Shown piece after piece: positions 2,023 through 56,737 of a stretch of 64,000 nucleotides of DNA. Position 1 is the stretch's first letter, and each line of letters opens with the position of its first letter. The notes beneath the pieces were generated by a model, which was given only the letters and a program-made list of their open reading frames with translations, did no database searches and was not told where the DNA came from. Source of the DNA: Isurus oxyrinchus (lineage: Eukaryota); contig JANJGN010000021.1 in the NCBI GenBank assembly GCA_026770705.1, positions 99,138,001 to 99,202,000 of the forward strand. The letters run 5' to 3'. The translations under genes were made by a program, and so were the position numbers.

Positions 2023-2283
2023 CGGATGTCTGGTTTGTACTCTTCATTATTGTATTCAGACTCTTTCCTGCCATGTCTGATTGTTTGTTGCTCAGATCTG
2101 TGAGACGTTCCCAGAATTCCACATTGATAGCAACTGCCATGACCTGCAGCCTGGGGATGGTCTGTCAACCATTACTGTCATGATAATTAACTTGAACTCC
2201 ATTGACCAGAGTAACTTTTGAAACCTCAGGAAATCCTGTGATTCCAGAGACTGCAGTGTATATCACAGAAAATAAATTAGTGT
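2023..2283 (-). pseudogene. MHC class I-like gene A, alpha1 exon (in-frame TGA at 2165-2167)
   Basis: ttttccag acceptor and G|gtaag donor; 261 bp, same length as B alpha1; DTNLFSVIYTAVSGITGFPEVSKVTLVNGVQVNYHDSNG*QTIPRLQVMAVAINVEFWERLTDLSNKQSDMAGKSLNTIMKSTNQTS. Confidence 0.9.
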
Positions 2284-12473: not shown

Positions 12474-12525
12474 CGGGAGAGACCCAGGAAAAACACAGGG
12501 AGATGGAGAAAAGGATCAGCAACAT
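12474..12525 (-). CDS. MHC class I-like gene A, leader exon
   Basis: ATG...MLLILFSISLCFSWVSP G|gtaagt; hydrophobic signal peptide, phase 1; identical to the gene B leader. Confidence 0.85.
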
Positions 12526-15021: not shown

Positions 15022-15684
15022 CAGTGAACAGGCTGAATCCCCCACACTGGCCTCTCTGCACATGACCCAAGTCCTGTTCCTCAATTACCCCTGTGCTCTT
15101 TGACCTACATTGGTTCCCAGTCAAGCAACACCTCAATTTTAAAATTCCAATCTGTCCACAGCCTTGTCCCTCCCTATTTCTGTAATCTCCTCCAGCCCCA
15201 CATCCCTGTGAGATATCTGTCCTCCTCTAATGCTGACTCTGTGAGCATCAGGAATTATAACCACCCACAATGGGGGCTGTGCCTTCAGCAGCCTCGGCCC
15301 ATAGATCTGGAATTCTCTCCCTCCACCTCTCAGCCTTTCTGTAAAACATTCTTAAAAACTTCTTCCCTGAGAAAGCTTGTGGGCATTGACCTGTGTGACT
15401 CAGGGTCATCCTTTGTTTTATAATGTTCCCCTGAAGCATCTTGGGGACGTTTCATTCGGTGAAAGGTGCTATAAATATAAGTTGTTGTTGTTTTCTTACT
15501 GCCAAAAATCTTAACCTGTCTCAGTTTGATCTTCCTAGTAACTGGTGACAAGTAACTGTTTATCCATTTCATTGGTATTTTTCTGAGACTAACCAATCAT
15601 TCACCCTCTGGTTCTATAATCAGGAAATTATCAAGTCTTGAGATAAACAGTTTGTGTTGTTTTTCCCAGTCTGTAAACAGGATT

Positions 15685-15725
15685 AGTTTCCCCCTCAGAG
15701 TGTTTCATTCCCAGTCTCTGATTGG
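15685..15725 (+). promoter_or_regulatory. Gene B proximal promoter motifs (ISRE-like, CCAAT/Y-box)
   Basis: AGTTTCCCC at 15685, GTTTCATTCC 15702-15711, CTGATTGG 15718-15725; second CCAAT near 15593; these motif classes are known in class I promoters. Confidence 0.5.
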
Positions 15726-15748
15726 AACAGGGAAAGTGGATTTCCGGA

Positions 15749-15800
15749 ATGTTGCTGATCCTTTTCTCCATCTCCCTGTGTTTTTCCTGGGTCTCTCCCG
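15749..15800 (+). CDS. Non-classical MHC class I gene B, exon 1 (leader)
   Basis: MLLILFSISLCFSWVSP, donor G|gtaagt. Confidence 0.9.
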
Positions 15801-16038
15801 GTAAGTACAGAATTCAGCCCTCCATTCTCACTCTCACTCTCTCTCCCTCTCTCTGGGGTTAATTGGAATCTTTTGGTGAGAGTTTGAAATGGGTGATGTT
15901 TGATTAGTCGCCTGTTATACAGGCAGCCTGATATTTTACATCATTGAAGTCAGCACCTGACAGCAGGATGTAGAAATACCGAGAGCAGAGAAGCTTGGAG
16001 CAAATGGAAGATGGCTCAAATGGATAATTTTAATTTTC

Positions 16039-16644: not shown

Positions 16645-16905
16645 AGACTAACTCACTGACTGTGATTATCACAGCAACCTCTGGAATCACAGATTTTCCT
16701 GAATTTACGAAAGTGGCGATGGTTAATGGAGTTCAGGTTAATTATCATGACAGTCATATTCAACGGAGCGTCCCCAGGCAGCAGTTCATGGCAGACTCTT
16801 TCGGTGTGGAATTCTGGGAATATCTCACAGACCTTGTGAAATCATTTTCCGACGGGGCAATGGAGAATCTGAATACGATATTGAAGAGCACAAATCAGAC
16901 ATCCG
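16645..16905 (+). CDS. Gene B exon 2 (MHC class I alpha1)
   Basis: ttttatag acceptor, G|gtaag donor; ETNSLTVIITATSGITDFPEFTKVAMVNGVQVNYHDS...PRQQFMA...EFWE...NQTS with the conserved N86 glycan sequon. Confidence 0.93.
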
Positions 16906-38732: not shown

Positions 38733-39960
38733 CTAGCTGAAGGTTCTTTGGATTAAATTGTCCCGGGTGTCCCTGTGTCCTTGGTGCAGTAGCGGGTCAT
38801 CGTTCTGCCCCTCATCATTGCCCTGTGCTTCCTCATCCTCTGAGACACTGCTGGATTCATCATGTGCAGCCTCATCCAGGGCGTCAAGGTCTTCATCGTC
38901 AACTGCATCCCCCCTTTCCAGCACAAGATTGTGCAGAGCGCAGCATGCTACCACTATCAGGGGGACGCGATCTGGAGGGTACTGGAGTGCGCCCCCTGAG
39001 GGGTCCAGGTAACAGAAGCGCATCTTGAGAAGACCGATGGTTCTCTCCACCACAGTCCTTGTGGTGCCCTGGCTCCTATTGTAACGCTGCTCAGCTTCTG
39101 TTCTTGGATGGCGGAGAGGCGTCATGAGCCACCTTCTGAGGGGATAACCCTTGTCACCCAGCAGCCATCCATTCAGCTGAACCAGAGCACTGAAGAGCTC
39201 CAGCACTTGGGAGTGTCTGAGGACGTAGGTATCATGGGAGCTGCCTGGGTACCTTGCACAGACTTGTAAAATCTGCATCCTGTGGTCACACACTATCTGC
39301 ACATTCATGGAGTTCCTGTTGATGAAGGAACCGGGCTCACCCGCTGGCGCCTTGATGGCCACATGTGTACAGTCTATAGCACCCTGGACGCGGGGGAAGC
39401 CAGCAATGGCCGCAAAGCCTCTGGCTCACTCTATCTGACTTGCCTGGTCACAGTGGAAGTGGATGAAGATCGATACCCGTCTGAACAGAGCGTCTGTAAC
39501 CTGCTTGACACAAGTGTGGACAGCTGATTGGGAGACACCACAAAGATCACCCACCGAGCCCTGGAAGGAGCCTGAGGCATAGAAGTAGAGGGCAACTATG
39601 AGCTTCAGAGCCGTTGGCATGGGGTGTCCACCCACACTGTTAGGGGAAATCTCAGGGCCAATCATCTAATAGATATAGTTGACTGTCTCCCTTGAGAGAT
39701 GGAGCCTCCTTTGGCACTGCACCTCAGTCATATTGAGATAGCTGCTTCACCGCCTGTATACCCTGGCAGCAGGAGAGTGGCGTCTTCTATGGCCCCTTCC
39801 ACCTTGGACAACCTCTTGGTCCTACGCCCCTTGTGCCTGCGCCTGGCCTCCCAAAGCTGGCTCCCCTGGAGGCTGATTGTCCAGTCCTGGCCTCCACCTG
39901 ATTCTATCCCTCCCTTCCTCCTCAGGGGAGCTGTCTCCAGTGGAGAGGTCAGAACCCATA
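38733..39960 (-). pseudogene. Harbinger DDE transposase (HARBI1-like), disrupted
   Basis: ALYFYASGSFQ...GVSQSAVH; GAIDCTH; SMNVQIVCD; YPGSSHD; LLGDKGYP; [12 protein letters not shown]; stops at 39426-39428 and ~39666. Confidence 0.9.
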
Positions 39961-41797: not shown

Positions 41798-42070
41798 GAA
41801 TCCATGTTTTCCAATGGATCACTATTATTGAGGTCACTGAAGATGGATCCATGAAGAGATCGATGCGGTATGGATTTGATGGAAAGGACTATATTAGTTT
41901 AGAGCCAGACAGAATGAGATGGGTCGCCACCAATCACATTGCAGTGAAGACTAAAGAGAAATGGAATTCCGATGACTCCTGGAACAAATATTGGAAATGG
42001 CAGTTGGAAATAGGTGTCCAGAATTTAAATACATATTTACAAGCTGGAAAGGAATATTTCAAAAGGAAAG
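41798..42070 (+). CDS. Gene B exon 3 (MHC class I alpha2; no cysteines)
   Basis: ttgacag acceptor, AAG|gtattt donor, 273 bp; GIHVFQW...YGFDGKDYISL...W...TKEKWN...YLQAGKEYFKRK. Confidence 0.93.
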
Positions 42071-42183
42071 GTATTTATATCAGTTTTGACCCCATTTTCT
42101 GATCCAACTTCACTGGTCTATGAAAGCGTTCTCCCATTATATTCCACGTCTATAGTTTGTGTTTTCACGCTTTCCCAATACAG

Positions 42184-42462
42184 TTCAGCCTGAAGTGTTC
42201 ATCTCCAGAAGTGACCCCAATAGTCAGTACAAGCCGCTCACTCTCTCCTGCCTGGTTACTGGGTTTTATCCTGTAGACATCGAGGTGAGCTGGCTAAGGA
42301 ATGGAGAGGTAATGTCTGAGACACTATCCTCGGGGGTTCGACCCAACCACGATGGGACCCATCAGATCCAGAAAGAGATTGAAATAAATGCTGGGGATGA
42401 GGATCAATACTCCTGTCAAATTGAACACAGCAGCCTGGCAGAGAGCAAGCTCTATCAGTGGG
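42184..42462 (+). CDS. Gene B exon 4 (alpha3, C1-set Ig)
   Basis: VQPEVF...LSCLVTGFYPVDIEVSWLRNG...PNHDGTHQ...YSCQIEHSSL...W; cag acceptor, G|gtaa donor. Confidence 0.96.
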
Positions 42463-44036: not shown

Positions 44037-44153
44037 ACATCCCGGGAAACAGTGCAGGACGCTCCCATCTTGGAATGATATTTGGATTAGTCGCATTACT
44101 GGCTGCTCTACTTCTGATAATCGGAATAATCAACTGGAAAAGCAAACAGAAAG
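44037..44153 (+). CDS. Gene B exon 5 (connecting peptide/TM)
   Basis: tttcag acceptor, AAG|gtaaga donor; DIPGNSAGRSHLGMIFGLVALLAALLLIIGIINWKSKQK; missed by the ORF track. Confidence 0.88.
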
Positions 44154-44829: not shown

Positions 44830-44862
44830 ATTCACCGAGTGTGACCTACACAACAGCTCAGA
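44830..44862 (+). CDS. Gene B exon 6 (cytoplasmic, Tyr motif)
   Basis: ctgcag acceptor, A|gtaagt donor; DSPSVTYTTAQ; paralogous exon in C. Confidence 0.85.
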
Positions 44863-48680: not shown

Positions 48681-49706
48681 TGAATTAGACTCCATTAATT
48701 TCTTTTATTCTGACCCCAACTATTAACTTCTGATTCCCTGCTCTAGTGCGATCTATCTTTCCCAGTATTCTGTGCACCTTGGCATCTCCTGCTTCCCACA
48801 TTCCTGCCAAGTTACTTAAAAGCCTTCCCAACCTCCCTTGGAAAACTTCAAACTGTCCCCTTGGAACAGAGAAGGTTAAGAGGTCATTTAATAGAGAGAT
48901 TCCAGATGAAGAAAGGTTTTGACAGAGTAGATGGGGAAAAATGAGTCTGTCTGGTGAGTGATCGATAATGAGAGGTTATAGATTTACAATCATTGCTCAG
49001 TGATCCAGAGAGGAGAAGAGGAGAAATGTTTTTCACTCTGGGACGTCGGGATCTGGAACGCTGCACCTGAAAATGTGGTGGAAGCTGATCCCATAAATAA
49101 TATTAAAAGGAATTGAACTGAGCGTGAGGAACTTACAGGGACAAAGACAAAAAGTTGGAATCTGGGTTGTTTCAAAGAGCCAGCAGGGGAAGATGGGCAG
49201 AATGGTTTCCTTTTGTGCTGAAAGTTATTATGGTTCTAGGGGACTTCACTTCAACCCGGTTACAATTCCACGTTCCCACTTCATTCCCAGATCCCTTGAT
49301 CCCCTCAGTGCTGCAGAATCGATGGATCTTAGTGCTGAATGTACTCATCACCTGATCATCCACAACCCTCTGGATAGACAATTCCAAAGATTCACAACTC
49401 TCTGAGTGAAGACATTTCTCCATCTCAGCCCAAACTGACTGATCCCTTATCCTGAGACTGGGAATCCTGGATCTAGACTCTCCAGACAGGGGAAAGAGTT
49501 TCTCAATGTCTTCCCCGTCAAATCCTCTCAGAATTTTATCTGTTTCAATGAGATCACCTCTTAGTCAAGTCAATACCGGAGAAGATAGGAACATTCTACT
49601 CAAATTCCACAGCAGGATTCACTGTCCTTCTCCAGTCAATTATCCTCCACTCCCTCACCATCCACTCTCTCACCCTCCATTCTCTCACCCTCTTTTATTT
49701 TCTCAG

Positions 49707-49744
49707 TTTCTGATGTCACTGTTCCAGAACGATCCAAGACCTAA
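49707..49744 (+). CDS. Candidate gene B terminal cytoplasmic exon (option 1)
   Basis: Strong polypyrimidine acceptor ttttctcag; phase 1 gives ISDVTVPERSKT*. Confidence 0.4.
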
Positions 49745-55977: not shown

Positions 55978-56094
55978 CTCTCCGTTGCCTTTTCCAAATG
56001 AACATTCCAATTATCCCTAATATAAAAATTCCAGCTATCACTAATCCTGTTACAATTCCAAGAATTAGAAGATCTCCACTGTTTTCCAGAATTT
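55978..56094 (-). pseudogene. Gene C TM exon
   Basis: EILENSGDLLILGIVTGLVIAGIFILGIIGMFIWKRQRR; 117 bp as in B. Confidence 0.88.
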
Positions 56095-56173
56095 CTGAAA
56101 CACATTTGAATAATATCAGGATTGTCTCTCTGTTCCCAAATCCATTCCGAGGTCTGACCGGGGACATTGGCAG

Positions 56174-56353
56174 GATGAGTCTCATCGTGGTTGGGTCGAA
56201 CCCCTGAGGATAGTGTCTCAGACATTACCTCTCCATTCCTTAGCCAGCTCACCTCGATGTCTACAGGATAAAACCCAGTAACCAGGCAGGAGAGAGTGAG
56301 CAGCTTGTACTGACTATTGGGGTCACTTCTGGAGATGAACACTTCAGGCTGAA
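56174..56353 (-). pseudogene. Gene C alpha3 exon, 3'-truncated
   Basis: VQPEVF...SCLVTGFYP...PNHDETH then joins intron 4 sequence; second Cys and donor lost. Confidence 0.92.
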
Positions 56354-56461: not shown

Positions 56462-56737
56462 CTTTTCTTTCAAAATGCTCCTTTCCAGCTTCAAAATATC
56501 TTTTTAAATTCTGAAAACCTATTTCTTCTATATTCCATTTCCAATATTTGTTCCAGGATTCATTGGAATTCCATTTCTCCTTAGTCTTCACTTCAATGTG
56601 ATTGGTTGTGACCCATCTCATTCTGCCTGGCTCTAAACTAATATAGTCCTTTCCATCAAATCCAAACCGCATCGTTCTCTTTATGGAGCCTTCTTCAGTG
56701 ATCTCAACAATTTTTATCCATTGGAAAATGTGGATTC
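56462..56737 (-). pseudogene. Gene C alpha2 exon (no Cys; donor GT deleted)
   Basis: GIHIFQWIKIVEITEEGSIKRTMRFGFDGKDYISL...TKEKWN...YWKWNIEEIGFQNLKRYFEAGKEHFERK; AAAG|atcatt instead of AAAG|gtattt. Confidence 0.92.

Follow-up and report, generated by a model that had tools for sequence, protein, structure and literature searches.

Gene B of the mako Isurus oxyrinchus is an intact, spliced MHC class I heavy-chain gene whose alpha2 domain lacks both cysteines of the C101-C164 disulfide. It lies in a 64,000-nucleotide stretch of contig JANJGN010000021.1 (positions 99,138,001 to 99,202,000), which is referred to as the window and whose first letter is position 1 of the coordinates given below. 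Very probably, gene B is a nonclassical class I gene of a shark-wide family, most likely UEA, which lost the disulfide through a Cys101-to-Val replacement in an ancestor shared with UCA. This best explanation includes a predicted class I fold and the likely binding of beta2m and of a hydrophobic ligand. The loss of the alpha2 disulfide is most likely an old trait common to the family and dogfish UCA, not the mark of a new lineage.

The exon model of gene B was built on white-shark P0003 (Carcharodon carcharias XP_041069585.1), the nearest named protein, which is 96% identical in alpha2. It comprises six exons on the forward strand with canonical splice sites throughout, phase 1 and an open frame, and the product shares 95% identity with P0003. 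The exons follow the class I domain order. Exon 1 encodes the leader peptide (15749..15800, GT donor at 15801), exon 2 the alpha1 domain (16645..16905; V7, F59 and S84, with the N86 glycosylation site kept), exon 3 the alpha2 domain (41798..42070) and exon 4 an alpha3 C1-set domain (42184..42462). The connecting peptide and transmembrane helix are located in exon 5 (44037..44153), and a cytoplasmic segment with a tyrosine motif in exon 6 (44830..44862). A probable last cytoplasmic exon at 49707..49744, also on the forward strand, is homologous to the tails of relatives, and a RefSeq isoform of the white shark corresponds to an alternative acceptor for it at 49291. Intron 2 spans 24.9 kb and is filled in part by several LINE fragments. 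It also harbors an open PIF/Harbinger-type transposase reading frame of 230 codons on the reverse strand (38736..39425; DDE_Tnp_4, E 3.7e-36), which is unrelated to the cysteine loss in alpha2.

Evidence for splicing comes from public contigs of one sample, in two (X1 and X3) of the four runs examined. These contigs join the 3' end of the gene's own alpha1 exon to the start of alpha2 and skip the 113-nt intron between alpha2 and alpha3 (42071-42183) at GT..AG; one contig begins at the acceptor of exon 5. The runs carry no RNA label on record and their RNA status is a guess, but the spliced joins mark the contigs as derived from transcripts. Gene B is therefore transcribed and spliced, and its treatment as a real gene in the preliminary description was justified. 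The 5' part of its own alpha2 exon was absent from the contigs of the runs X6 and X13, and none of the public-run contigs searched showed a junction from the transmembrane exon to the tail, including the probable last exon.

The alpha2 exon (273 nt, open, bounded by AG and GT, with a Pfam MHC_I match) contains no cysteine. Residue numbers were mapped by eye to HLA-A2, and shark UAA, UBA-like, UDA and UGA-like proteins carrying both cysteines served as reference for gene B and its paralog C. In this alignment positions 100-101 read Ile-Ile in gene B and Ile-Val in paralog C, and position 164 is a glycine in both. The codon at the C101 position is ATT in gene B (41827..41829, forward strand) and GTT in paralog C; that at the C164 position is GGT (42013..42015 on the forward strand in gene B). 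One codon is missing in gene B just before position 163, and the same gap occurs in its white-shark orthologue P0003. The preliminary description had read these residues correctly in both exons. It had also stated that gene B keeps the beta2m-contact residues H93, Q96, D119-G120 and D122 and both alpha3 cysteines, and all of them are present.

A protein search retrieved 67 relatives. The 66 that are named all originate from sharks and are spread across 13 species, with Heptranchias and Pristiophorus at one end and Carcharodon at the other. The family presumably spans six shark orders. There was no named record of it from rays or chimaeras, an absence limited by the holdings of the database, and ray records in a wider search were of the UDA type only. 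For the alpha2 domain 339 rows were aligned and 30 partial rows dropped. C101 is found in none of the 144 family rows and C164 in 13, whereas 159 of the 165 class I rows from outside the family have both cysteines, five have C101 only and one, Squalus UCA, has neither. Among unique domains the corresponding numbers are 0/98 for C101 and 10/98 for an orphan C164 in the family, against 150/155 with both cysteines outside it. The absence of cysteines from the alpha2 domain of gene B is thus a real feature and not due to chance. Loss of both cysteines, as had been claimed, applies to gene B and paralog C but not to the family as a whole, in which only C101 is always gone. Position 101 is a valine in 74 of 80 non-redundant members, and position 164 is occupied by G, F, Y, S, W, C or L. 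Losses of a single cysteine also occur sporadically outside the family: four unnamed class I proteins (P0174, P0176, P0187 and P0218; five domains) have kept C101 and lack C164.

The residues contacting beta2m are conserved in the same 80 members (H93, Q96, G120 and D122 in all, D119 in 78), and W133, W147 and W156 are likewise invariant. Judged by these conserved contact residues, the product of gene B likely binds beta2m. At position 27, where Y27 is a beta2m contact of alpha1, it has Met. The matches of a C1-set search of the mako genome were taken up by immunoglobulin-type exons, and beta2m was not recognized among them. In alpha1, 30 of the 80 members carry a cysteine at position 45 and a few have one at position 9 (P0017, P0025, P0046 and relatives; L025 and L026), with neither present in gene B. 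These residues are possible sites of an alternative bond or of dimer formation.

In the mako genome 14 of 20 alpha2 matches belong to the family of gene B and represent 12 copies; 11 of these are on C21 (98.97-99.31 Mb) and the twelfth is on C16. None of the 12 has C101, and C164 occurs in one broken copy (L009). This copy, at G000:C21:99015347, is frameshifted and has cysteines at positions 97 and 164; in P0062, its counterpart in the white shark, this region is affected by a truncation. The C16 locus (C16:53768374-53775200; L005, L055 and L056) is an apparently intact family member almost identical to white-shark P0030 of the MHC chromosome. Four copies look intact over alpha2-alpha3, and eight look broken at alpha1, alpha2 or alpha3 through stops, frameshifts or lost donors. 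Both neighbors of gene B are on the reverse strand. Paralog A has a leader exon at 12474..12525, an alpha1 exon with an in-frame TGA at 2023..2283 and a cysteine-free alpha2 outside the window (L004). Paralog C consists of alpha1 outside the window (G000:C21:99206148-99206405), a cysteine-free alpha2 (56462..56737; V101, G164) that has lost its splice donor, an alpha3 cut off after codon 59 by a deletion into the next intron (56175..56353) and a transmembrane exon (55979..56095). Paralog C is thus not an intact gene. In one X6 contig alpha2 is skipped and an alpha1 end of the A/C type is followed directly by alpha3 (at position 42183 of the window), which fits paralogs with a lost alpha2 donor such as C and L002.

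The many broken copies, paralogs A and C among them, would also be expected if the cysteine loss reflected decay, with gene B and its paralogs being pseudogenes or non-folding remnants. Mutation of the alpha2 bond, which is positioned at the A pocket, harms the folding of HLA-A2 and abolishes its binding to TAPBPR, according to PMC6926029. However, gene B is open and spliced, valine is near-fixed at position 101, and H93, Q96, G120, D122, W133, W147 and W156 do not vary. The dN/dS of alpha2 between gene B and six paralogs is below 1 (0.23-0.61), and orthologous sublineages extend across shark orders. Decay is hardly credible as an explanation against this background. As paralog C is broken, loss in both paralogs, the argument originally put forward, is weak evidence for a lineage trait, and the strong evidence is the family census. 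Together with the splicing of gene B and the tree it upholds the view that the loss is a trait of the lineage.

In a three-domain tree of 57 ectodomains the family forms one clade (100/98) and groups with Squalus UCA (99/95). On this tree C101 changes state once and C164 five times, and sublineages with orthologues span shark orders. A tree of alpha1 and alpha2 (28 rows, mixture model) also recovers the grouping with UCA (98/94) and the family (83/92). The trees were calculated without UFA and the 'UHA' query and contain no sequence labelled UEA. Squalus UCA forms a long branch (1.25-1.9) and has a best identity of about 30% to the family over alpha1 and alpha2. The single shared loss of the cysteine could for this reason be two losses, and the sister placement is good, not final. 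The UCA of Squalus acanthias (AAN78091.1 / Q8HWI9; P0172) resembles the family in V101, the missing Cys164, W97, W152, W156 and F116. This one sequence differs from gene B in its low identity, in having one of nine peptide anchors compared to five of nine, and in its leader. Assignment of gene B to UCA in the strict sense was rejected, since its best identity to AAN78091.1 is 30% and the family is sister to UCA and not nested inside it. An assignment to UDA was discarded as well: UDA has the C101-C164 pair, eight of nine anchors and a single copy, and a separate UDA gene adjoins the cluster. Classical class Ia (UAA) does not fit I101, G164, V7, F59, S84 and Q159, and gene B has five of nine anchors compared to eight of nine in UAA.

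The genomic neighborhood points to UEA. Beside the cluster, C21 harbors UDA at 98.93-98.96 Mb, a UFA-like gene at 98.91 Mb (L045) and two UGA-like genes at 98.45-98.55 Mb (L041, L042 and L044), with UBA-like genes beyond 99.6 Mb; these labels were assigned by eye against published queries, of which the nurse-shark one for UGA is, by the same kind of comparison, a match to PDB 9CH4. The alpha2 exons of the neighboring UDA, UGA-like and UBA-like genes and of UAA keep both cysteines; that of the UFA-like gene was not recovered. The family of gene B is the only large multicopy family adjoining UDA in the mako genome. PMC10751288 places single-copy UDA, multicopy UEA and UFA in one MHC-Ib cluster, and marks the white-shark gene LOC121291255 (P0005), a member of the family of gene B, as MHC-Ib in that cluster. 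UBA and UEA are named as the two expanded shark families in PMC12562908. The brd2 and b2m flanks of the MHC-Ib cluster were not located around the cluster on C21. UEA is said to occur in sharks and to be absent from rays and chimaeras, a finding attributed to Almeida et al. 2021, who reportedly also described it as distantly related to dogfish UCA, devoid of the invariant peptide anchors and equipped with a hydrophobic groove. Three sublineages of UEA are reportedly distinguished.

As described second-hand in PMC10751288 and PMC12562908, UEA agrees with the family of gene B in being multicopy, MHC-linked beside UDA, shark-only in searches and related to UCA. Degraded peptide anchors and a groove more hydrophobic than that of UAA may be further similarities, and no difference has been established. 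Members without the cysteines are already in print. Supplemental File 10 of PMC10751288, a collection of sequences 'previously reported for cartilaginous fish', contains a nurse-shark entry 'Gcirratum_UCA_NODE_26056' that belongs by eye to the family in all three domains and has Val101 and Leu164, as well as Squalus UCA with valine at both 101 and 164. A divergent 'UHA' query in the same file also lacks cysteines at positions 101 and 164 of alpha2. The nurse-shark entry bears the label 'UCA'. As UCA is presumably restricted to dogfish, we infer that this label is a working name of UEA.

Together these features make it highly probable that the family of gene B is the described UEA lineage; the assignment was made by description (position, copy number, range and UCA kinship) and not by reference sequences. 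It could instead be a lineage of its own that is not UEA, has not been described and is defined by the loss of the alpha2 disulfide. The sequences compared include none labelled UEA, the supplement of PMC10751288 nowhere contains the string 'uea', and no statement of a C101-C164 loss in a shark lineage was found in the literature searched; such a statement may be published elsewhere. However, a family member is on the list of previously reported sequences, the only large multicopy family by UDA is where PMC10751288 puts UEA, and the restriction to sharks and the kinship to UCA match what is reported of UEA. A separate lineage is therefore very unlikely. The preliminary description had considered either the UEA/UCA group or an undescribed sublineage; tree and neighborhood favor the former, and the published sequences without the cysteines speak against the latter. 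It had itself named membership in a described sublineage as the finding that would remove the novelty, and with a cysteine-less nurse-shark member and UCA in a published alignment this largely applies. The discovery is a modest one in this respect, as the lineage is almost certainly described.

The loss of the cysteines coincides with a remodelled N-terminal end of the groove. Gene B has V7, F59, S84, Q159 and N167 and keeps five of nine peptide anchors, with Y123, T143, K146, W147 and Y171 retained. None of the 80 family members has G100, and most are also without W167, Y7 and Y159. The N-terminal anchors and R84 are missing, whereas the C-terminal triad T143, K146 and W147 is mostly kept. 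According to PMC8236899, the alpha2 helix is raised by G100 together with the C101-C164 bridge, which allows W167 to close off the end of the groove, and the corresponding pair in the other half of the platform has disappeared several times. With G100 and C101 gone throughout, and W167, Y7 and Y159 in most members, the remodelled N-terminal end may no longer need the disulfide as a pin. We propose that C101V was fixed first, in the common ancestor with dogfish UCA, and that the orphan C164 would then have drifted separately in the sublineages, some of which still carry it. The residues G, F, Y, S and W at position 164 are each one base away from a cysteine codon, which fits an early C101V followed by repeated release of C164; reversion to cysteine at this position is possible. 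Val101 and the invariant or nearly invariant M114, W133, W147, W152 and W156 would pack the helix onto the sheet non-covalently.

An AlphaFold prediction of the orthologue P0003 with 44 family sequences yielded a normal class I fold with a pLDDT of 85 for the block containing position 101 and 91 for that containing position 164. The model speaks for the plausibility of the fold only and says nothing about stability. The helix had been described as not tethered to the sheet, which holds for the covalent bond but not otherwise, because Val or Ile is fixed at position 101 and the helix is predicted to be in place. A fold search with the model returned class I folds with Z of about 23. Chicken YF1*7.1 and MR1, which bind hydrophobic or small-molecule ligands, ranked first (Z 22-23), with all rows within 1 Z. 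As they tie with classical class I, these values have no bearing on the ligand; both proteins are possible functional analogues of gene B but not orthologous to it. Both keep the alpha2 disulfide. Shark UAA (Triakis AAB97342.1; PDB 6LUP) and UBA share with gene B the class I domain order, H93, Q96 and D122, but in contrast to it possess both cysteines, G100, W167, Y7 and Y159.

Groove hydropathy, calculated over a self-chosen list of positions, is 0.69 in gene B and 0.40 on average in the family (range -0.09 to 1.01). The value of gene B is above those of UAA (-0.15, 0.28) and UDA, and the family overlaps UBA-like proteins (0.35-0.53). From these residues, a lipopeptide, a fatty-acyl compound or a hydrophobic peptide whose N-terminus overhangs or is blocked has about an even chance of being the ligand. 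The kept T143, K146 and W147 could still hold a carboxylate end. The product of gene B may instead fold with beta2m around a closed or empty groove and, in the manner of FcRn, HFE or MICA, be recognized by a receptor independently of any ligand of its own. The lost N-terminal anchors would be in line with this, and the bulky residues W97, M114, F/Y116, W152, W156 and Y155, which point into or line the groove, would fill it. The retained C-terminal triad argues against such a closure. So does the strong divergence of alpha1/alpha2 groove positions between paralogs with a homogenised alpha3, a pattern in keeping with diversified ligand sites. A closed groove is accordingly rather unlikely; it bears on nothing but the ligand and would not conflict with membership in UEA. 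The favored ligand, at roughly even odds from the groove residues, is a hydrophobic one bearing a carboxylate end, ahead of a closed groove and of unusual peptides. A peptide ligand is possible, given the five of nine anchors kept.

The C101-C164 bond is regarded as all but indispensable, and dozens of shark genes do without it. If the broader scenario given below for UEA and UCA holds and is new to the UEA literature, the family is a natural experiment on class I folding without the invariant bond. Its members could serve as they are for finding out what keeps the alpha2 helix in place, if tapasin/TAPBPR is bypassed and which type of ligand is bound.

Shark UDA (QGX07421.1; P0169) differs from the family in its protein identity of about 35-38%, the kept C101-C164 pair, eight of nine anchors, its single copy and a polar groove. 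However, it is the adjoining gene, its leader peptide is the same as that of the family, and the promoter-leader DNA is nearly the same. The promoter region of gene B (15411..15748, forward strand) and its leader exon match, at 88% identity across 576 nt (15411-15956), a cassette 12.5 kb upstream of UDA alpha1 (L048, C21 about 98.955 Mb). A further 385 nt upstream of this match are 98% identical to the UDA cassette, so that the similarity extends over window positions 15039-15956 overall. In Pristiophorus and Chiloscyllium punctatum the leaders of UDA and the family have species-specific residues in common, which points to conversion between lineages about 37% identical in protein. The sequences suggest that a regulatory cassette has undergone gene conversion involving UDA and UEA-type genes; the literature consulted contained no mention of this shared cassette. 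A broader scenario is tentative. UEA and UCA may form an ancient, expanded and expressed group that dropped the disulfide in two steps (C101V, then C164 repeatedly) along with the entire N-terminal pocket, acquired an open-ended groove for lipopeptide-like ligands, and is co-regulated with the unrelated UDA by a promoter-leader cassette that conversion keeps identical in each shark lineage. Among seven paralogs at C21 98.97-99.33 Mb, dS is 0-0.07 in alpha3 compared to 0.18-0.55 in alpha2. By these values alpha3 appears to be homogenised by concerted evolution while the groove domains diverge.
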